Positions 7,956 through 58,918 of a stretch of 64,000 nt of DNA are shown here, in pieces. Each line of letters starts with the position of its first letter. Within the stretch, counting starts at the first letter, position 1. The position numbers and the translations under genes were made by a program. The notes beneath the pieces were generated by a model. It was not told the DNA's origin, made no database searches, and saw only the letters and a program-made list of their open reading frames with translations. Origin of the DNA: a virus; the IMG/VR virus record IMGVR_UViG_3300029998_000020, positions 9,130 through 73,129 of that record, one strand, 5' to 3'.

Positions 7956-8111
7956 TTATAGATTATTTAATCTATTTAACTTTTCAGTTCTATCATTTTT
8001 TAATTTCTTTCTTTCTTCTTCTCTATCAAATATCATTTTAAATGTATAGTTATAAAATGCAGGATTTGCTACTAAGTCGTAGCTGAAAAGTTTACTTGAT
8101 TTTATTTCCAA
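7956..8111 (-). CDS. 51 aa mini-ORF: prohead-protease-like motif plus C-terminal tag; not in ORF track
   Basis: TTG start; MEIKSSKLFSYDLVANPAFYNYTFKMIFDREEERKKLKNDRTEKLNRLNNL. Confidence 0.6.
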   Translation of the reverse strand: MEIKSSKLFSYDLVANPAFYNYTFKMIFDREEERKKLKNDRTEKLNRLNNL

Positions 8112-14132: not shown

Positions 14133-16007
14133 TTATTTTATTTCCTCAAAATCCACGTCTGTTACATTTTCAGAATCATCTTTTTTGTCAGATGAATTGC
14201 TTTCATTCGTTGACTGATTTTTTGATTCTTCATAAAGTTTACCACTAATGTTTTGCCAAACATCATTAAGTTCTTTGGTGTATTTATCAATATTATCAAC
14301 ATTTTGAGTTTTGTGAGCTTCTTTAAGATTATCAAGTTTAGAATTCAATTCAGTTTTGTTTTCTTCATTCAATTTATCACCAAATTCTTCAATTTGTTTT
14401 TCAGTTTGAAAAATCATTGAGTCAGCTTGATTCAACTTATCAACTTTTTCTTTTTCTTTCTTATCAGCATCAGAATTTTGTTCAGCTTCCATTTTCATTC
14501 TTTCAATCTCTTCTTTTGTTAGAGATGAATTACCTTCAATCCTAATGTCATTCTTTTTTCCTGTTGCTTTATCAACTGCAGTAACTGTCAAAATATTATT
14601 TGCATCAATTGAAAACGAAATTTCTATTTGCGGTACTCCTCGTCTGGCTGGCATAATTCCATCTAAATTAAAAGTTCCCAACATTTTATTATCCTTAAAC
14701 ATACTTCTATTTCCAGTTGAAACATTAATCTGAACACCAGGCTGATTGTCAGTGGCTGTACTGAATATTTGTGTCTTAGTTGTAGGAATTGTTGTATTAG
14801 CCTCTACCATGACACTGGCTACACCGCCCATACTCTCCAGTGAGAAGTTTAAAGCTGTAACATCGAGTAATAAGATGTCAGTTGTATCACCAGCAAGAAC
14901 AGATGCTTGTATAGCTGCACCTGATGCAATTGCAGTATCAGGATTAAGTGACTTATTCGCTTTCTTACCAAAATATTTTTCAATACTTTCTGACAAATAT
15001 GGAATTCTAGTGCTACCTCCAACAAGTACAATTTCGTCAATATCTGAAACTTTCTTACCACTTTTATTCATTGATGATTGAATCAATGATATTGTTTTAT
15101 CAACATAGAATTGAATCAATTGTTCAAATTTAGATCTTGTTAATTTTTGAACCAAATGTTTAGGTTGTCCATCTACAGCAGTGATGTATGGTAAATTTAT
15201 TTCTGTTTGTGTAGTATTAGACAATTCTATTTTTGCTTTTTCTGATGCTTCTGTAACACGTTGTAGAGCCATTGGATCTTTACGAATATCAACGCCTGTT
15301 TCTTTTAAAAATTCATCAGATATAAAATTCACAAGTGCGTCATCAATTAAATTACCACCTAAATCTAAATCACCATCAGTTCCAATAACTTCAAATAATC
15401 CGTCCTCTATATCTAAAACTGAAAAATCACTTGTACACCCACCACTATCAACTATCATATAAAGTTTACCAGTTTTATCTTTAATATTTAATGATGCTGC
15501 TGTTGGTTCAGATATAATTCTATCAACAGTAAATCCTGCTATTTCACCTGCAACTTTTGTACTGCTTCTTTCATCTGAATTGAAATATGCTGGAGTTGTT
15601 ATGACCGCATTGGTTACATTTGTTCCAAGGTAATCTTCTGCTGTTTTTTTCATTTTTTGAAGGATCATTGCAGAAATTTCTTCTGGTGAATATATTCTTT
15701 CACCAATTTTTACACCAGCCTTACCATTATTATCAACTATATCATAAGGACGTTTAAGATGTTTAACTTCCTCATAAGTTCTACCAATAAGTCTTTTGAT
15801 ATTAAAAATTGTGTTTTTTGGATTTAATGCTGCTTGTCTTTTTGCAGATTCACCAACTTTAATTTCTCCTGTTTTTTCATCAAATGATACAATTGAAGGA
15901 GTTGATAGCGATCCTTCTGAATTAGGTATGACAATTGTTTGTCCACCTTCTACTATAGATACGGCTGAATTGTATGAACCTAAATCTATTCCAATAATTT
16001 TTCCCAT
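14133..16007 (-). CDS. dnaK: Hsp70 chaperone DnaK
   Basis: MGKIIGIDLG, IKRLIGR, EPTAA, VGGSTRIP, DNQPGV, RGVPQIEISF, C-terminal DVDFEEIK. Confidence 0.97.
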   Translation of the reverse strand: MGKIIGIDLGSYNSAVSIVEGGQTIVIPNSEGSLSTPSIVSFDEKTGEIKVGESAKRQAALNPKNTIFNIKRLIGRTYEEVKHLKRPYDIVDNNGKAGVKIGERIYSPEEISAMILQKMKKTAEDYLGTNVTNAVITTPAYFNSDERSSTKVAGEIAGFTVDRIISEPTAASLNIKDKTGKLYMIVDSGGCTSDFSVLDIEDGLFEVIGTDGDLDLGGNLIDDALVNFISDEFLKETGVDIRKDPMALQRVTEASEKAKIELSNTTQTEINLPYITAVDGQPKHLVQKLTRSKFEQLIQFYVDKTISLIQSSMNKSGKKVSDIDEIVLVGGSTRIPYLSESIEKYFGKKANKSLNPDTAIASGAAIQASVLAGDTTDILLLDVTALNFSLESMGGVASVMVEANTTIPTTKTQIFSTATDNQPGVQINVSTGNRSMFKDNKMLGTFNLDGIMPARRGVPQIEISFSIDANNILTVTAVDKATGKKNDIRIEGNSSLTKEEIERMKMEAEQNSDADKKEKEKVDKLNQADSMIFQTEKQIEEFGDKLNEENKTELNSKLDNLKEAHKTQNVDNIDKYTKELNDVWQNISGKLYEESKNQSTNESNSSDKKDDSENVTDVDFEEIK

Positions 16008-21141: not shown

Positions 21142-21648
21142 TTATAATTTGCCTAAACTATTCAGTTCATTATTCAGTTTAGATCCAAGCAGTTCCAAAT
21201 TTTTCAGTTGATTTTTTACTTGATTTATACTATCATTAAAATCTTCTTTGATATTATTATTAAATTCTTCTATATCATCTTTATTTATTAACTCATCTAA
21301 TTTTTTATACAATTCTTCACGTTCCATATTGTTTGCATTATAATCAAATTCATCATTTTCAGTATCTTTTTCATATTGAGATTCATTTTCAGATATCTTT
21401 TTGTTTACAGATAGTATATCATCTTTTGTTTTATTAGATAATTCTTTAAATTTGAAAGTATATTCTTCAGTTATAAGAGGACACCATTTTGGTTTATATT
21501 CATTCTCATCTAACTCGATATAATGTTCATTTAATTTTAAATAATTTGATAATACGCATATATTTGTGTCTGGATTTACTGTTGCATCATAGTCATATTC
21601 TGTGTGACAAAAAGGGCAATTCAAGCAACCATTTACTGTTTTTTTCAT
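21142..21648 (-). CDS. Cys-rich (Zn-binding-like) N-terminus plus coiled coil
   Basis: GCLNCPFC...C.LS...PKWCPL. Confidence 0.65.
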   Translation of the reverse strand: MKKTVNGCLNCPFCHTEYDYDATVNPDTNICVLSNYLKLNEHYIELDENEYKPKWCPLITEEYTFKFKELSNKTKDDILSVNKKISENESQYEKDTENDEFDYNANNMEREELYKKLDELINKDDIEEFNNNIKEDFNDSINQVKNQLKNLELLGSKLNNELNSLGKL

Positions 21649-21815
21649 TTTAAGTTATTTATTTTTTCTATCTTTTTCTTTCTTTCTATTTTTGTTATTT
21701 TTCTTTTTAGTTCAGCAGCTAATTTTTCATCTATATCAAAAGATTCTGGATATAAACTTGCATAATCAAAATTAGATATACTATATAAATCTTCAAATTT
21801 CAGATTCTTCTTCAC
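21645..21815 (-). CDS. 56 aa mini-ORF: PolB motif-A-like peptide plus C-terminal tag; not in ORF track
   Basis: GTG start; MKKNLKFEDLYSISNFDYASLYPESFDIDEKLAAELKRKITKIERKKKIEKINNLK; TGA overlaps next ATG. Confidence 0.65.
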   Translation of the reverse strand: MKKNLKFEDLYSISNFDYASLYPESFDIDEKLAAELKRKITKIERKKKIEKINNLK

Positions 21816-31793: not shown

Positions 31794-31824
31794 AAAAAAA
31801 TACACTTAAATAAGTGTATTTTTT
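31794..31824 (-). terminator. Intrinsic terminator
   Basis: AAAAAATACACTTA-AA-TAAGTGTATTTTTT. Confidence 0.7.
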
Positions 31825-33665
31825 AATAATATTTCAAACTTTATATTTGTATCATTTTTAATATATACTCTATTCATTATATTGAAAATATATTTAAATA
31901 TTCTTTTAAGTTCTTTTCTTTGAGTTTTTCTTGCATCTATTAGAGTGCTACTGTAAATATCATTCAATTCAAATTTTGTATAAATTTTTTCAAATAGTAT
32001 ACTATTTTCAATGTCTTTATTTCTTTTGAAATATATTTTTTCTAAATCATTTGATTTTACTGTTCTACATTTAATTTCATTAAAGTCTGTATCTAGCCAA
32101 ATATCATATATTTTTCTGATAGTATCATTTTTGAATTTTGAAATTATATTTTCATCTTTAATACTATTTGTAATAATATAATTTAATATTTCTATTTCAT
32201 CATTTTCAACTTTAATATCATTTTCACTACTAATATTATTAATATCCATTAATTTTTTATTGACTTCATCAGGTGCAAAAACTTTGCCTTTTTCATCTGA
32301 TTCATTCCAAGCCATTGTGATACCCCACTTAACTCCTGAAATATCATTAATAATTTTATTTCTTAATAAATCTAAAAATTTAATATTTTTATAATTTTCT
32401 TTTTTGCATTTTTTGAAAATATTAGATATTGAACCAATACCAGTATGTCCACCTGCAACTGTTCTATCATCATCATATTCTAAATGTTGTTTGAAGTTTT
32501 TTAATAAACCATCCATATATGAACCTAAATTATCAATTGGTATACCATTCTTATCTTTTGGTAAATCATCTGGCGACATATCAGACATTTTAGTTGTCAA
32601 ATTTGCAATTTGAAGTGTATTACCATATTGTAACAGAACGAAATTTAATTTAGTATTATACTGAATAATACCTGATTCAACATCTTGTGAAAAAATAGCC
32701 TTAGCTCTTAATGCATTCGCCCAAGTTCCTGACGGTACATACATTAAATTTCCTATTATTTGATATACAACAGGCTTAACTTGCCATTTTAATTCATCAG
32801 TATTTATTACATTACCTTCATCATCATGATCTATGTATGGAATTTTTTGTGCAAATTTTTTCCAAAATTCATCTTGTGATGAAAATATTATTTTTTTACC
32901 ATCTTCTGTGAACCCTTGTGATTCATTTCCAATACCTTTTGTTTTTGATTTCATTTGTTCTAATCTTAAATATGCATCAGATACAAATTCAGGTTCATCA
33001 CCATTTTTGAAATTAGGATTATTTTTAGGATAGAATATTTTAAATAATCTGAAAATGTTATATATTGATGGTTCTTGAGATGCATTTATAACTTCAATAA
33101 ATGTTTTATGGTCAGAACGCTTGAGCATTTGATTAAATGATGCTGCAAAATTTAACTTTGCATTATCACTATTGATAATATTATTTAAATCAAAATCTAA
33201 TATACCTTTGATGTCTACATGATACTCATCATATTTTGCAGAATCAATCATGTCTATCCAATCTTTTGTGTCATTTGAAAATGGTATGCCTAATTGTTGA
33301 GCTAAACCTTCAGCTGCAGAACCAGTATTTGTTTTTATACTACCTTTCTTTTGTGCTATTATTTTCTCTTCTTCAGAAAAAATTCCATGGTGGTCGACAT
33401 AATAATTAAATGACTCATCATCCGAAGAAAAATCTAATGTTATATTAATCAGTGAGTTATCTAATTTGAATGCATCAACACCTTCTTGGTAATCAATCAA
33501 ACCATATCTAAGAATTTTAAAATCATGATTAATTAAATAATTCTTCATTATTATTGCGGAAACTATTCCGTCTAAATCATTGTGTGTAATTAAACATACA
33601 TTTTTTCCAGATTTGCCTTTTTTTAGCCAATAATTTATATCATTTGGAAGTCTTGGTGCAGCCAT
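31806..33665 (-). CDS. DHH/DHHA1-family phosphoesterase-like protein
   Basis: ITHNDLDG, TLDF, VDHH, AGGH. Confidence 0.75.
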   Translation of the reverse strand: MAAPRLPNDINYWLKKGKSGKNVCLITHNDLDGIVSAIIMKNYLINHDFKILRYGLIDYQEGVDAFKLDNSLINITLDFSSDDESFNYYVDHHGIFSEEEKIIAQKKGSIKTNTGSAAEGLAQQLGIPFSNDTKDWIDMIDSAKYDEYHVDIKGILDFDLNNIINSDNAKLNFAASFNQMLKRSDHKTFIEVINASQEPSIYNIFRLFKIFYPKNNPNFKNGDEPEFVSDAYLRLEQMKSKTKGIGNESQGFTEDGKKIIFSSQDEFWKKFAQKIPYIDHDDEGNVINTDELKWQVKPVVYQIIGNLMYVPSGTWANALRAKAIFSQDVESGIIQYNTKLNFVLLQYGNTLQIANLTTKMSDMSPDDLPKDKNGIPIDNLGSYMDGLLKNFKQHLEYDDDRTVAGGHTGIGSISNIFKKCKKENYKNIKFLDLLRNKIINDISGVKWGITMAWNESDEKGKVFAPDEVNKKLMDINNISSENDIKVENDEIEILNYIITNSIKDENIISKFKNDTIRKIYDIWLDTDFNEIKCRTVKSNDLEKIYFKRNKDIENSILFEKIYTKFELNDIYSSTLIDARKTQRKELKRIFKYIFNIMNRVYIKNDTNIKFEILLKNTLI

Positions 33666-36115: not shown

Positions 36116-37456
36116 ATGGCTAAAAAAGAAAAAAGTGATAAAATATTTGTACTTGATACAAGTGTAATACTTTATGATCACAATGCAATTTACAATTTTG
36201 AAGAAAATGATGTTGCAATTCCTATTACAGTATTCGAAGAATTAGATGATTTCAAAAAGGGTAATGACACAATTAATTATGAGGCAAGAGAATTTATTAG
36301 AAAAACAGATAAATTAGCATCTAAATGTAATTTGAGCGATTGGATTCCTATTGGTAAAGGAAAAGGTAGAGTTAAGGTTGTGATGAATGAAACAACTGGA
36401 ACAACTGATGCTTGTTTAGTTTTTAAATCTACAAAGCCAGATCATTTAATTTTAAATACTGCGTTGTCATTGGTAGAAGAATATCCTGACAAAAAGATTA
36501 TACTTGTATCAAAAGATATAAATTTAAGATTGAAAGCTAAATCTTTAAATGTTAATTCTGAAGATTATTTAACAGGTAAAATTAAAGATACTGATAAATT
36601 ATTTACAGGTAGATCAACAATTGAATTAGATACAGATGATATAATTACTAAACTATATCAAGATAATGTTTGTACACCACAAGAACTTGGTATTACAGAT
36701 TTATTAAATAATAAATATTTAATTATTAAATCATCTATTTCTGCTGCATCAGCTTTAGCATATTATAATTCATCAAAACAGCAAGTGGAAAGAATAGATA
36801 AAGAAACATGTTATAAAATAACACCAAGAAATTCTGAACAAGTATTTGCGTTACATGCATTATTAAATCCTGATGTTAAATTAGTATCATTACAAGGAGT
36901 TGCAGGAACAGGAAAAACATTGTTAGCTTTGGCTGCTGCACTTAGTCAGAAGAGAAATTTTAAACAAATATTTTTGGCGAGACCAATTGTGCCATTAAGT
37001 GGAAAAGACATAGGCTATCTTCCTGGCGATGTTGATCAGAAGACATCAGTGTACATGATGCCTCTGTTCGATAATCTAAAATTTATACAAAGTCAGTTTA
37101 AAGATACTGATAAGGAATATAAATTCATTCAAGATTGTATTAAAGACGAAAAAGTAATAATAACTCCTTTGACATATATTCGTGGACGTAGTATTTCAAA
37201 TGTTTTTTTTATTGTTGACGAATCTCAGAACCTTACTCCTCATGAAATAAAAACTATTATAACAAGAGCAGGAGAAGGTACAAAGATTGTGTTCACTGGA
37301 GATATAAATCAGATCGACACACCTTATTTAGATGCTCAAAGTAATGGATTATCACATTTAATTGCTAAAATAAAAGGACAACCTATTTATTCTCATGTGA
37401 CTCTTGAAAAAGGAGAACGTTCTGAATTAGCAAATATTGCAAATGAATTACTTTAA
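36116..37456 (+). CDS. phoH: PIN-PhoH (PhoH2/YlaK-type) protein
   Basis: VLDTSV PIN motif; GVAGTGKT; IRGRS; VDESQN; GDINQID. Confidence 0.92.
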   Translation: MAKKEKSDKIFVLDTSVILYDHNAIYNFEENDVAIPITVFEELDDFKKGNDTINYEAREFIRKTDKLASKCNLSDWIPIGKGKGRVKVVMNETTGTTDACLVFKSTKPDHLILNTALSLVEEYPDKKIILVSKDINLRLKAKSLNVNSEDYLTGKIKDTDKLFTGRSTIELDTDDIITKLYQDNVCTPQELGITDLLNNKYLIIKSSISAASALAYYNSSKQQVERIDKETCYKITPRNSEQVFALHALLNPDVKLVSLQGVAGTGKTLLALAAALSQKRNFKQIFLARPIVPLSGKDIGYLPGDVDQKTSVYMMPLFDNLKFIQSQFKDTDKEYKFIQDCIKDEKVIITPLTYIRGRSISNVFFIVDESQNLTPHEIKTIITRAGEGTKIVFTGDINQIDTPYLDAQSNGLSHLIAKIKGQPIYSHVTLEKGERSELANIANELL

Positions 37457-40945: not shown

Positions 40946-40999
40946 AGATAATAAAAAAATGAGCTATAATAATCTATAGCTCATTTTATTTTTAATGAT

Positions 41000-41290
41000 T
41001 TAATGTTTTTTGTGTTTATAATATAATTTTTTACTATATTTTTCTTCTTGTTTTTTTCTTTCTTCTAATTTTTTATTAATTTCATTATAAGTGTTATTGG
41101 ATAATTTTTCCAAGTATTTCAACTTTTTCTTTCTATCTTCTTTTTTCCTTACTTGTGATTCGTATTTTTCTATTATTTTAGCAGTAATAGAATCAATAAT
41201 TACATAATTACCAGATCCGTTCAAATTTTTCTGGTGAATAATATTCGCAGCATTTAGTATTTTTTGATATAGTTCACTGTTTTTTGACAT
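41000..41290 (-). CDS. 96 aa protein: T4-gp23-like major capsid segment plus tag
   Basis: LYQKILNAANIIHQKNLNGSGNYVIIDS then RKKEDRKKKLKYLEKL. Confidence 0.65.
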   Translation of the reverse strand: MSKNSELYQKILNAANIIHQKNLNGSGNYVIIDSITAKIIEKYESQVRKKEDRKKKLKYLEKLSNNTYNEINKKLEERKKQEEKYSKKLYYKHKKH

Positions 41291-41304: not shown

Positions 41305-41331
41305 AAAAAAAGTCTCATAAAGAGACTTTTT
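41305..41331 (-). terminator. Terminator after tRNA-like gene
   Basis: AAAAAAGTCTC-ATAAA-GAGACTTTTT. Confidence 0.7.
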
Positions 41332-41333
41332 AT

Positions 41334-41405
41334 TTGAGCAAGAGGTCTGATTTGAACAGAATCTTTTTACTGGAAGTAAAAAGCATTAACATATGCTACC
41401 TCTGC
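41334..41405 (-). tRNA. tRNA-Gly(TCC), degenerate/atypical
   Basis: D arm GCAT/ATGC, anticodon arm TTTTA-CTTCCAG-TAAAA, T arm TCTG-TTCAAAT-CAGA; acceptor GCAGAGG/CCTCTTGC has a bulge; ends TCAA. Confidence 0.6.
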
Positions 41406-41576
41406 ATTTTAATAATATAGTAATAAAAAAAATTATAGTTTATAAATTATATATAAATTTTAAATTACCAGAATCAAAAATTCTATATATTTTTCTATCT
41501 AACATAATTTGTCAATTAATTGGTATCAAAAAATTAATAAATACCACCTTTTTATTTTTATATATAAAAATAAAAA

Positions 41577-41729
41577 ATGAAAAACAAATCAAAAATTTCG
41601 ATATCATTAAAAAATGAATTGATAGATTATTTAAATGACTTGAGTTTAAATAAATCTAAATTTATAGAAAAATTAATAGAAGAGTATAAAATAATAAAAA
41701 TAAATAATGATAATAACAAAAAAAGTTAA
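41577..41729 (+). CDS. Ribbon-helix-helix small protein; not in ORF track
   Basis: MKNKSKISISLKNELIDYLNDLSLNKSKFIEKLIEEY... Confidence 0.6.
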   Translation: MKNKSKISISLKNELIDYLNDLSLNKSKFIEKLIEEYKIIKINNDNNKKS

Positions 41730-42696
41730 AATTCATATTAAAGGAATATCAATAAAAAGATATAAAAAATTAGGTTATAATGTTGATACTAAAGGATTAA
41801 ATACTATTAATGTTGAAGATCTTCCTAAATGTAGTAATATTAAAGTCATGGTGAAATGTGATAATTGTGATTATGAAAAAGAATTAAAGATTCAAGATTA
41901 TTATTTATCTTTTAAAAATAATAAATATTGTTGTAATAAATGCTCATATGAAAATTATAAAAAAACAATGTTAGAAAGATATGGAGTTGAAAATGGATTT
42001 CAATATAAAGACATAAAAGAAAAATCTAATAGCACTAAAATAAAATTATATGGAGATGAAAATTACAATAATAGAGAAAAAGCGATAGAAACATGTTTAG
42101 ATAAATATGGTGTTGAAAATCCTAATCAAAATTATAAAATAAAAAAAAAATCTAATAATACTTGCTTAGAAAAATATGGATTTGAAACAGCATCTAAAAA
42201 TGAAAAAGTAAAGGAAAAAATAAAAAAAACAAATTTGAAAAGATGGAACAGTACATGTACATTACATTCAGAAAAACAAATTGATAAAATTAAACAAATA
42301 TTTATTGATAAATATGGAGTTGATAATCCTATGAAGAATTTAGAAATATTTTTAAAAGCCCAAAAAACAGCTCTAAATCGTAAAAAATTTAAAGAAACTG
42401 AATTATTATATCAAGGTACATATGAATTAGATTTTTTAAATAATTATTATGAAAAAATTAATATTGAAAATGGTAAATCAATAAAAATAATTTATAATAA
42501 TAATAAAACTGTGTATCATTCTGATTTTTTTTTATCTGAAAAAAATTTAATTATAGAAATAAAATCATCATATTGGTATAATAGATATTATGATAAAAAT
42601 ATAATTAAACAAAAAGAATGTGAAAAATTAGGATATAATTATATCATAATAATAGATAAAAATTATAATGATTTTAATAAATTAATAATGATTTAA
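41707..42696 (+). CDS. Putative free-standing endonuclease: Zn ribbon, KYGVEN repeats, PD-(D/E)xK C-terminus
   Basis: CDNC/CNKC; YGVEN/YGVDN repeats; YHSDF...IIEIKS. Confidence 0.7.
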   Translation: MIITKKVKIHIKGISIKRYKKLGYNVDTKGLNTINVEDLPKCSNIKVMVKCDNCDYEKELKIQDYYLSFKNNKYCCNKCSYENYKKTMLERYGVENGFQYKDIKEKSNSTKIKLYGDENYNNREKAIETCLDKYGVENPNQNYKIKKKSNNTCLEKYGFETASKNEKVKEKIKKTNLKRWNSTCTLHSEKQIDKIKQIFIDKYGVDNPMKNLEIFLKAQKTALNRKKFKETELLYQGTYELDFLNNYYEKINIENGKSIKIIYNNNKTVYHSDFFLSEKNLIIEIKSSYWYNRYYDKNIIKQKECEKLGYNYIIIIDKNYNDFNKLIMI

Positions 42697-42735: not shown

Positions 42736-44217
42736 TTATATATTTGTTTCTTCTAATTTTTTTAATTCATCTTTTAACTTTTCAAGTTCTTCGTGTTTTT
42801 GATTCATTACTTTCTTCCATTTTTTTCTATCAGAATAAACTTCTCCCATTACTTGAGTAACAACACCATCTTCATTCTTAAATACTGATCCATTGAGAGT
42901 TACAATATCATCAGGTTCAATTGTTAATTGATGTCCATTAAATAATGAGTAATCTTTACCTTTTACTTTTTGTCCTTTATATGAGTCTGCTGATATGTTA
43001 AATTCTCTCATTGTGGTAGGATACAGGGATGCGAAGTCAAAACAACAAGTCCATGTTGCCATTCCTCTCACTGGATCTTTAACCCATCCACCTTTAATAG
43101 ATTCAGATTCAGAATCACTATATTCACTATCTTCATTTCTTACAAGTACAATATTCTTTTGATCTCTTAATTTTTCTCTTAAAATTCCTTCTGTCAGTGC
43201 AAGTGTTGAAATTGCATCTTTAATTTTAATTTTACCTAATACAGCCATACCATAAAGAATATCTACATATTTCATTTTAACGTGAATTCTTTGTACCAGA
43301 CAACTATCTACAGCATTATAAAAAACGAATTTCTTAAAATCTTCTCTATGTAATCTTTTTAAATCTCCATCATAGTTAATTTTCTTGACTTCTTTACCAA
43401 GAATTTTTTCTGATGCAAAATCAAGAGATAAACTTTCTTTAACTTTAACAGATTGATCCCATTTCTTAAATAATTCCATATAATCCACTATAACTCTATG
43501 AGCTGGTAATTCAGCATAATCTAAATGTATTGCATTAGGAGGATTGAATGGTTTGTTAAGTTTCTTTGTGAAAGATGCTACTTCAGGTTCTAGTCCTAAT
43601 TTTCTTGCCCTTGCAACTAAGAATGTCCAGTCATATGCAATAAAATTCCAGCCAGTCATTACTGGCATTTTTGGAACTAATTTATTGAAAAATGCATGAA
43701 GCATATCAAATTCAGTTTTATAATGAACATATTTAAATTTATAATCAGTATCAAATTTTTTGAAGTGAGTATTTAAATCTGATTCAATGTTTTCAATTTG
43801 TTTTGAATCCAGTGATTCTGTTCCAATTACTAACACTTTATTCTTATTTACAATTGATATTGTTTGAATCGCACTTTCTGCTAAATGAGGTTCAGGTTTT
43901 TTATCTAATATTTCATTTTCAATATCGACAAAGAATATATCTGGTTCATTATAACTATATATTTCATTTTTTTCATCTTCATCAAAACTATCAATAAAAT
44001 CATAAATAGAATATCTATTAGGATATTTTGTGAATATTTCTTTTACAGCACTACCATCCCATGTAACATATCTACCAGATTTTTCTGAATCATCATCAGT
44101 AGTTTTTATGAATTTTGTACATCTTGCCCAAGGTTTATATTTTAATTTTATTTGACCTGATTTATCTATGTAACTTATTATAAGGTTATTATTTCTGTAT
44201 TCTGTGTCTATAAGCAT
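42736..44217 (-). CDS. Family-B DNA polymerase, N-terminal half (3'-5' exonuclease plus motif A); split gene
   Basis: VDIE, GWNFIAYD, YNAVD, GGWV, FDFASLYP, DRKKWK; lacks KxxxNSxYG and YGDTDS. Confidence 0.88.
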   Translation of the reverse strand: MLIDTEYRNNNLIISYIDKSGQIKLKYKPWARCTKFIKTTDDDSEKSGRYVTWDGSAVKEIFTKYPNRYSIYDFIDSFDEDEKNEIYSYNEPDIFFVDIENEILDKKPEPHLAESAIQTISIVNKNKVLVIGTESLDSKQIENIESDLNTHFKKFDTDYKFKYVHYKTEFDMLHAFFNKLVPKMPVMTGWNFIAYDWTFLVARARKLGLEPEVASFTKKLNKPFNPPNAIHLDYAELPAHRVIVDYMELFKKWDQSVKVKESLSLDFASEKILGKEVKKINYDGDLKRLHREDFKKFVFYNAVDSCLVQRIHVKMKYVDILYGMAVLGKIKIKDAISTLALTEGILREKLRDQKNIVLVRNEDSEYSDSESESIKGGWVKDPVRGMATWTCCFDFASLYPTTMREFNISADSYKGQKVKGKDYSLFNGHQLTIEPDDIVTLNGSVFKNEDGVVTQVMGEVYSDRKKWKKVMNQKHEELEKLKDELKKLEETNI

Positions 44218-44376: not shown

Positions 44377-47952
<3,576 letters not shown>

Positions 47953-57151: not shown

Positions 57152-58918
57152 TTAATCAATTGAAACGTTATTAACAGGCTTGTATTTGTTAATTAATGTT
57201 TCTCTATTACTAAATCCTCTGCTTCTTGGACTCATGATAACAATAGGAGAACTTTGAGCAGCTTTATAAACTGAAATTTTCATTTTACTAACAGCAAAAT
57301 TTACTTGCTCATTCCATTGTTTGATATCATATTTATAAACTTCCTCCATTTTAGGGAAATAGTCAATATTTAATGAATGATTTTTATAATCTAAAATCAA
57401 ATCATCTCGTGTTTTTCTATCTCTAATTAAAGATGCACATATTCCACTTTGCACCCAATAATCAATAGGATCTTCATTTGCATCAGGTAATTCTGCTGCA
57501 GGTTTAAATTTACCATTATATAAATCAAAAGGTACAATCTCATCTTTATACAATTCTGTGTTTATATAATCTGACAATTCATACAATTCAACTTTTGTCA
57601 AATCACCAATAATAGCATGAACACCAATTGATCCAATATCATGAAATGAAGCCCAGCCAAGAACTATTTCAGTGTGATTTCCAGTTGATACAATACCACT
57701 TTTAAATCTGTGAGTATCTTCTAATCCTAACACAGTTCTTAGTACAGCATGAATTGATGCTTTACCTGTATCACTTAATTCAGGTGAATCACTCATATGA
57801 ATTTTATCAACTTCTAATATTTCATTGACTGTTGATTGAATAGGTTGCCAGTATGTATTTGTTCCTAATTTTTCGTCTAATTGAGTTACATAATCTTTTG
57901 ATTTAGTATTCAATGAAGATGGATTAGATATAAATATTGTATGTTCTTTACCCATAGCACGATAAACTAATGCTGCTACAATAGATGAATCAAGTCCTCC
58001 TGACACATGAACTTGAGCATTTTCAATTCCTGATAATTTGAAAAATTCTTTTTGTTCAAATAGAATTGCATCAGTAATTTCTTTATATTTACTATCATCG
58101 CTACCTACTATTGGTTCACTTTTTTTTAGTCTGAATGTTTCAGTTGTTTCTTTAAATTTAGGTAGTTCTTTAACTAATCTACCATAACTATTATAGACAA
58201 GAGAACCTCCATCGTAAATTATAATATTTTTAACAATATCTCCACAACCAACAGAATTTAATGATACTACTGGAACCATATTATTTTTTGCAATTTTAGA
58301 AAATAAATTTTTTCTGATTTTTTGCTTACCATAATAAAAATATGATTGATTAGGTATAATTAAAATTTCTGCCCCCATATTAACCATTTCTTGTGGTATG
58401 TCTCTATGATGGTTCATAAACCAAGAATCTTCACAAATTGGTATTCCTATGATAGTTTTACCTGCATTTGGTAAGTAAACTTCAAAAACTTTAGTTTCAG
58501 TTCCTTCTGTGAAATATTTTCTATCTTCATGATGATCTGTATCTGCTAACAATTGTTTATCATAGGTACGAATTCCATCTTTATCAATTACCGCTACTGA
58601 ATTTTTCAATATAGGAAATCCATTTCTGTTATTACCATGTGATGAAACGAATCCAACAATAATAATACCATGTAATCCTATTTCTTTTCTGAATTTTTGA
58701 ATTTCTTTCAATTTTGTGATTTGATCACGAATGAAATCTTCTCTATCCCAAAGAGAACCACAACAATAACCACTAATAGCAGTTTCTGGGAAAACTGATA
58801 TATCTACAAAATTTTTACTATCTAATTTTAAACAATCCATAATTTTTTGGGTATTTCCAATTAAATCACCAGTGACTGTATTAATCTGATGTAACGAAAT
58901 ATTTGCATTTTCAATCAT
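57152..58918 (-). CDS. nadE: Glutamine-dependent NAD+ synthetase
   Basis: Nitrilase triad FPE/YDK/ICED plus synthetase VSGGLDSS, IGDLTK, PAAEL. Confidence 0.9.
   Translation of the reverse strand: MIENANISLHQINTVTGDLIGNTQKIMDCLKLDSKNFVDISVFPETAISGYCCGSLWDREDFIRDQITKLKEIQKFRKEIGLHGIIIVGFVSSHGNNRNGFPILKNSVAVIDKDGIRTYDKQLLADTDHHEDRKYFTEGTETKVFEVYLPNAGKTIIGIPICEDSWFMNHHRDIPQEMVNMGAEILIIPNQSYFYYGKQKIRKNLFSKIAKNNMVPVVSLNSVGCGDIVKNIIIYDGGSLVYNSYGRLVKELPKFKETTETFRLKKSEPIVGSDDSKYKEITDAILFEQKEFFKLSGIENAQVHVSGGLDSSIVAALVYRAMGKEHTIFISNPSSLNTKSKDYVTQLDEKLGTNTYWQPIQSTVNEILEVDKIHMSDSPELSDTGKASIHAVLRTVLGLEDTHRFKSGIVSTGNHTEIVLGWASFHDIGSIGVHAIIGDLTKVELYELSDYINTELYKDEIVPFDLYNGKFKPAAELPDANEDPIDYWVQSGICASLIRDRKTRDDLILDYKNHSLNIDYFPKMEEVYKYDIKQWNEQVNFAVSKMKISVYKAAQSSPIVIMSPRSRGFSNRETLINKYKPVNNVSID

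Follow-up and report, generated by a model that had tools for sequence, protein, structure and literature searches.

This locus raises the question of why a phage would keep a small piece of a major capsid protein (MCP), joined to a short basic tail, as a gene of its own. It lies in a 64,000-nt stretch of viral DNA (hereafter the window), for which an original prediction, made from the letters alone, had proposed a fragment of a gp23-type capsid protein fused to a tag. The ORF in question is present at 41000..41290 on the minus strand and encodes both peptides quoted in that prediction.

Genomic setting of the mini-protein gene

The window belongs to a viral contig of 92.8 kb that is rated 13% complete and has a G+C content of 22–32%; the sequencing runs that contain its DNA are peat metagenomes. 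The contig encodes a split family-B polymerase (polB) with 55% identity to polB of LR756501 and LR756503, uncultured phages of 735 kb, and we therefore take the contig to be part of the genome of a huge phage related to T4. N-terminal-only polB genes encoding 494–502 aa recur in three related loci (L002, L137 and L139), which indicates that the split is ancestral in the lineage. The gene for the mini-protein is placed in a replication and nucleotide-metabolism region (Table 1), away from head genes. The predicted separation from the structural genes is supported, as no MCP gene was found on the 92.8-kb contig, and in two relatives that carry both genes the distance between mini-protein and MCP is 61 kb (G005) and ~276 kb (G006). 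A 619-aa ORF at 31806..33665 was considered as the MCP of this phage and rejected, having neither similarity to the LR756501 MCP nor a PHROG match.

Table 1. Positions of the mini-protein gene, its modules and surrounding features in the window
Feature	Position	Strand	Description	Source
Mini-protein gene	41000..41290, stop codon included	minus	96 aa, ATG start, TAA stop	ORF list
Copy of gp23-type MCP segment	41159..41281	minus	Residues 4–44	hhalign, Pfam Gp23, AF2, dN/dS
Basic label helix, R-x-x-K-[LI]-x-x-[LI]	41096..41140	minus	Residues 51–65 (EDRKKKLKYLEKLSN)	
Lys/Glu-rich C-terminal extension	41003..41095	minus	Residues 66–96; lineage-specific, without counterpart in most family members	
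Terminator-like hairpin	40956..40987	minus	14-bp stem plus T-run, 13 nt past the stop codon	
10-bp hairpin	41305..41331	minus	Between tRNA-Gly and ORF start; not called by the terminator scan	Direct sequence reading
tRNA-Gly(TCC)	41336..41405	minus	Directly upstream of the mini-protein gene, same strand	ARAGORN
Homing endonuclease	41707..42696	plus	PHROG 3339/12131, DUF7487 type; upstream of the mini-protein gene, beside split polB	
polB N-terminal subunit	42736..44217	minus	493 aa, upstream of the mini-protein gene; exonuclease domain and start of polymerase domain including motif A	
HSP70	14133-16007		666 bits	
PIN-PhoH fusion	36116-37456			
Glutamine-dependent NAD synthase	57152-58918			
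Collagen-repeat protein	44377-47952		1191 aa	

Close homologues of the mini-protein, with 62–99% identity, share its start. The terminator scan found two terminator-like hairpins in the region where 0.1 were expected. Within the hairpin that follows the stop codon, a natural variant strain, recovered from three peat runs, carries two compensatory pairs of changes, 40963 G>A with 40980 C>T (G-C to A-T) and 40967 T>C with 40976 A>G (T-A to C-G). On the upstream side, tRNA-Gly(TCC) and the mini-protein gene are possibly carried on one transcript; none of the RNA runs searched contained the mini-protein gene. A TTATATATA motif is located at 41448-41456 on the minus strand, ~43 nt upstream of the tRNA; across the window this 'late-type' motif is marginally enriched (18 vs 10 ± 3.7), and we draw no inference on timing from it. 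Endonucleases that share the C-terminal motif of the homing endonuclease of the window directly follow the MCP gene in the relatives L030 and L041 and also occur close to the mini-protein gene in G006; L094:6341-7255 belongs to this set as well.

The N-terminal module matches gp23-type capsid proteins

Analysed alone, the window ORF resembles the capsid profiles only faintly. It matches Pfam Gp23 (PF07068) with an E-value of 3.3e-3 and 17.3 bits, under the curated cut-off of 24.4 bits, with residues 5–45 aligned to profile positions 222–262; in a six-frame search of the genome with PF07068 it scores 14.6 bits, and against PHROG 138 ('major head protein') it reaches an E-value of 0.014. A tblastn search with the ORF in 50,697 phage records returned a sole match, located inside a capsid gene, at E=5. 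A profile of five close homologues gave no gp23 or gp24 match at E≤10 among PDB sequences. This profile was too narrow, and the matter was decided by one of 66 family members.

Individually, 57 of the 66 members match Pfam Gp23 (best E-value 7.3e-11) and 48 match PHROG 138 (best E-value 6.3e-10). Alignment of the family with 80 full-length MCPs by hhalign yielded a probability of 97.5% and an E-value of 8.6e-12 over 41 columns, pairing residues 4–44 of the mini-protein with residues 458–498 of the LR756501 MCP. An HMM built from MCPs only matches all 66 mini-proteins, the window ORF at E 3.1e-8, with the best of 660 shuffled mini-proteins at E 0.17. In the reciprocal search, the mini-protein profile picked out the MCP gene of every one of the ten large phage genomes tried, with per-genome E-values of 6e-12 to 2e-7. 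Judged by these profile comparisons, the likeness of the window ORF to gp23-type MCPs is far beyond chance once the family is used, and the Pfam, hhalign and MCP-only HMM matches bear out the description of the ORF as a gp23-type capsid fragment followed by a tag; the result that would have spoken against the original prediction, a lack of profile similarity to gp23, did not occur.

The segment aligns to 'LLFQIDKEAVEIARQTGRGEGNFIIASRNVVNVLAS' of T4 gp23, which corresponds to residues ~287–322 of the mature chain and ~352–387 of the precursor; the gp23 consensus given in the original prediction is correct. Going by the HK97 fold, we tentatively place the copied segment in the A-domain. Only 41 of the 376 profile positions of PF07068 are covered by the mini-protein, which has 96 aa vs 540–670 aa for MCPs. 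Modelling with AF2 from the 66-sequence alignment (mean pLDDT 92.7) predicted a helix at residues 3–23, an extended, unpaired GSGNYVIIDS stretch at 24–33 and a long helix at 34–94, that is, essentially two helices of which the long one is highly charged. Foldseek comparison of this model with the PDB gave no match, as expected from a two-helix model, and the ESM Atlas, which includes the mini-protein sequence, provided no usable look-alikes.

Partial Gp23-like matches other than the MCP were also seen elsewhere in huge phages, in LR756501 (L009, L010 and L011) and in G006 (L128, L129 and L131). They lie in frames of 68–482 aa, among them one of 482 aa that scores 24.5 bits and one of 261 aa that scores 26 bits, and may represent vertex paralogues or more capsid-derived proteins.

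The mini-proteins form a widespread family

An exhaustive profile search of 1.84 billion representative proteins, seeded on the close homologues, recovered 64 representatives at E≤1e-3, nearly all of 55–75 aa and aligned over query positions ~3–60; one is a repetitive 621-aa false positive, leaving about 63 sequence clusters. Close homologues match the window ORF with E-values of 1e-48 to 4e-21. The family consensus reads K.L..KIL.ASNIIH..S..G..NYIIVS...A, then a linker, then R.KKLK.I. Near-invariant positions in the 66-member family are I18, R53 and K56, and the R..K of the tag is the best conserved feature; in the window ORF the tag motif is RKKKLKYL (residues 53–60), which is invariant among the close homologues.

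The median family member is 66 aa long, with the R of the tag a median of 14 residues from the C-terminal end. The window ORF departs from this form in its length of 96 aa and in its internal tag, 44 residues from the C-terminal end, because its sub-lineage carries an extension of ~30 aa. This Lys/Glu-rich extension is common to the window ORF, P0002, P0003 and P0007, and a variant strain diverges within it, whereas the sister protein P0004 has the canonical form of 65 aa and ends right after the tag. Two longer metagenomic members, P0043 and P0047 (L014:67-495), carry a second MCP-derived piece, VY[IV]DP...[IV]LVGR, before the main one; the order of the two pieces is permuted relative to the MCP, with MCP HMM positions 512–540 ahead of 441–486, at marginal domain E-values of 2-3e-3.

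In the sources checked, the mini-protein has no annotation beyond 'hypothetical protein'. The unannotated family phrog_28442 is matched by 16 of the 66 members (best E-value 5.6e-5) and not by the window ORF itself at E≤10; on the strength of these profile matches it may hold a few members of the mini-protein family from reference genomes. With four family members as queries, tblastn found no mini-protein among the 50,697 phage records, and thus no cultured phage with the gene. The capsid-core mini-proteins are a widespread, unnamed family.

The gene is selected, syntenic and sporadically distributed

Comparison of the window ORF with L002 gave a dN/dS of 0.18 at a dS of ~1.0 for the capsid-like part and of 0.56 for the C-terminal extension, and identical copies of the gene occur in independent peat samples. 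The slot between the polB N-terminal subunit and PIN-PhoH is kept in contigs whose mini-proteins are 31–59% identical, as exemplified by P0069 (59% identity, contigs up to 347 kb) and P0025 (~31%); the immediate neighbours are conserved only within the closest sub-lineage. Substitution patterns and gene order together indicate that the mini-protein gene is under purifying selection and is functional, not debris.

The gene is present in G000, L002, L137/L138, L139, G005, G006 and G007 and absent from LR756501 (735 kb), near-complete G001 (640 kb), G002 (676 kb) and G004 (243 kb), all of which have an MCP. Such a sporadic distribution marks it as an accessory gene. Its absence from these MCP-bearing relatives, together with the small share of Gp23 positions that it covers, excludes a shell subunit as its product.

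No recent origin of the capsid piece from the resident MCP gene

The comparison with the phage's own MCP that the original prediction had suggested was made in the two relatives that carry both genes, G005 and G006. There the mini-protein shares no pairwise similarity with the resident MCP at E≤10, and it therefore was not copied from that gene in recent time. The huge-phage clade has kept the corresponding MCP segment almost unchanged in about 50 sequences ('KLIAKINNASNFIATDGRVGPAQYLVTNGNLASVI'), and the window copy is 23–28% identical to it. Identity to MCPs of the 'AANVIHKKTLRGSGNFIVCSPEV' (RGSGNF) type and to the MCP of Microcystis phage Mel-JY01 is 38–41%, a contrast that is biased by the retrieval of the RGSGNF-type MCP loci with mini-derived patterns. 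A locus search with a tighter mini-protein sub-alignment returned mostly full-length MCPs, and large contigs with an RGSGNF-type MCP had no mini-protein in the parts available. The capsid-like part is a helix-strand-helix segment of a gp23-type MCP, copied long ago and evolving on its own since.

The basic tag is shared by unrelated small proteins

Tails matching R..K[LIF]..[LI] are not confined to the mini-protein. Among the 146 ORFs of the contig the motif occurs 21 times within 25 residues of the C-terminal end, in 20 proteins (one has two overlapping matches), vs a shuffle expectation of 0.3 for whole-protein and 0.8 for tail-only shuffling (maximum 4), an enrichment of about 25–70-fold. 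The predicted tag is accordingly real, both by these counts and by its invariance among close homologues. Only three internal matches occur on the contig, the window ORF being one of them. The tagged ORFs of the window, about 20 in number and spanning 916-41290, have unrelated heads, mostly without family.

The R of the tag is encoded by AGA, AGG or CGT and its hydrophobic positions by TTA, TTG, CTC, CTT or ATA; information is concentrated in codon positions 1 and 2, and third positions vary. The varied codons exclude a DNA-level origin, such as a promoter or the ribosome site of the next gene, and, with the information in first and second positions, identify the tag as a protein-level signal. 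Similar tails are found on neighbours of the mini-protein in relatives, and weak tag-only matches in genomes without it.

One part of the original prediction was not supported as stated, namely that the mini-protein is a second instance of a core-protein fragment with a tag. The ORFs proposed as comparable cases, 21645..21815 (polB motif A) and 7956..8111 (prohead protease), tested as single sequences, had no Pfam or PHROG match to those families at E≤0.1. With no profile support for these two, ORF 41000..41290 remains the one instance in the window in which a core-protein fragment with a tag is verified.

Possible functions of the tagged capsid fragment

These features show that the gene encodes a two-module accessory product, consisting of a copy of the MCP core and a label helix; we propose, with a probability of about 60% for the explanation as a whole, that it works as a tagged bait. 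The capsid piece would present a hydrophobic strand, left unpaired by the monomer model, and would bind whatever recognizes that part of an unassembled gp23-type MCP. Candidates are an adjacent subunit, a folding intermediate, a chaperone and a sensor. The label helix would dock the protein to a common partner or drive oligomerisation. As to the consequence of such binding, we place slightly first, at low confidence, a dominant-negative interference with the folding or assembly of gp23-type capsids, more probably of other phages than of the phage itself. The own-lineage MCP differs from the mini-protein at the copied motif. The copied piece is internal to the MCP chain and presumably lies in the interior once the protein has folded; assembled capsids therefore offer no evident surface for binding. 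A single attempt at complex prediction for the G006 MCP and its own mini-protein gave a score of 0.00, which speaks neither for nor against binding, and no relevant account of capsid fragments that act as dominant negatives when phages compete came up in a literature search. A wider picture, which we hold just as tentatively, is that the address-tagged mini-proteins of giant phages show single conserved capsid pieces, and that this mimicry derails the gp23-type capsids of competitors or blunts the host's reading of nascent capsid.

The label can also be read as a packaging signal. A label shared by about 20 otherwise unrelated small proteins has the look of a sorting signal, and the head of the mini-protein is MCP-derived, so the label helix could load small proteins into the procapsid, with the capsid piece sitting at the inner shell or core, and the product could be injected with the DNA. 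Such a packaged cargo is unlikely, given that the gene lies among replication and nucleotide-metabolism genes and not with the head genes, and that the family alignment, judged by eye, has no conserved protease-type cleavage site beside the tag; the complex prediction returns no verdict here either. Still less likely is a defence decoy or blocker that offers a conserved capsid epitope to a host sensor and occupies it without triggering it. Capsid proteins do trigger Lit, CapRel and CmdTAC, and the segment in question ranks with the best conserved ones of the MCP, near-invariant in about 50 huge-phage MCPs, but this segment is not the Gol region, the mini-protein resembles the MCP of its own phage too poorly to be a good stand-in, and a trigger supplied as a free copy should switch a sensor on, not silence it.

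The function might instead have nothing to do with capsids. If the helix-strand-helix were an exapted scaffold, serving as a dimerising or folding unit, the activity, such as nucleic acid or membrane binding, would belong to the label helix or to the charged tail. The best conserved residues, R53 and K56, do fall in the tag outside the capsid-like part, the model amounts to little more than two helices, one of them long and highly charged, and other tagged proteins have unrelated heads; however, the capsid-like part evolves at a dN/dS of 0.18 and has retained MCP-conserved positions after long divergence, and the second MCP piece in the two longer members suggests that the capsid likeness itself matters, which leaves this account improbable. 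The remaining account, that the ORF is a leftover of a capsid gene moved by recombination or by the adjacent homing endonuclease, could appeal to the location of that endonuclease 400 bp away and to the same-family endonucleases beside the MCP genes of L030 and L041. In our judgement it is refuted by the results on family, selection, synteny and terminator: the 64 clusters, counting the false positive, have a conserved start, length and tail, the dN/dS is low, synteny extends across 31–59% identity, the gene has its own terminator, and its product is unlike the resident MCP.

Comparison with known systems

Capsid proteins are usually seen as shell subunits only, yet here a 40-residue slice has long been kept as a separate gene under selection. 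If the mimicry implied by the tagged-bait reading is true, the mini-protein would be a natural, evolved dominant-negative or decoy fragment, and part of the dark small-protein content of giant phages could be read as a head that names the imitated target and a tail that names the destination. Even without a function, the family offers a clean, testable pair of modules.

The closest known relative is the gp23-type MCP itself (T4 gp23, PF07068, PHROG 138), of which residues ~352–387 in T4 are homologous to residues 4–44 of the mini-protein. The mini-protein lacks the N-arm, the E-loop, the P-domain and the remaining A-domain and cannot form a shell; conversely, it has a basic tail, which the MCP lacks, and its gene sits outside the head module. 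A tag common to unrelated proteins recalls the T4 internal proteins IPI-III and Alt, which carry a capsid-targeting sequence at the N-terminus that is cut by the head protease. In both cases one short peptide is common to unrelated small proteins, but the T4 signal is N-terminal, cleaved and of another sequence, whereas the label described here is a C-terminal basic helix and only a putative address.

Small accessory proteins that act on capsids are also known from satellites, in which P4 Sid, SaPI CpmB, PICI Ccm and PLE TcaP redirect the HK97-fold capsid assembly of another element, and Ccm is itself a capsid-protein homologue. The satellite proteins are scaffolds, external or internal, or else MCP homologues of full length, whereas the mini-protein is a 40-residue core fragment encoded by a giant phage, with at most a proposed effect on assembly. 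Gol, residues ~93–122 near the N-terminus of T4 gp23, activates the e14 Lit protease together with EF-Tu. Like the mini-protein, Gol is a short stretch of gp23, and it is biologically active beyond its part in the shell; but Gol is not a separate gene, whereas the mini-protein corresponds to a different region of gp23 and is encoded by a conserved stand-alone gene, with a tag.
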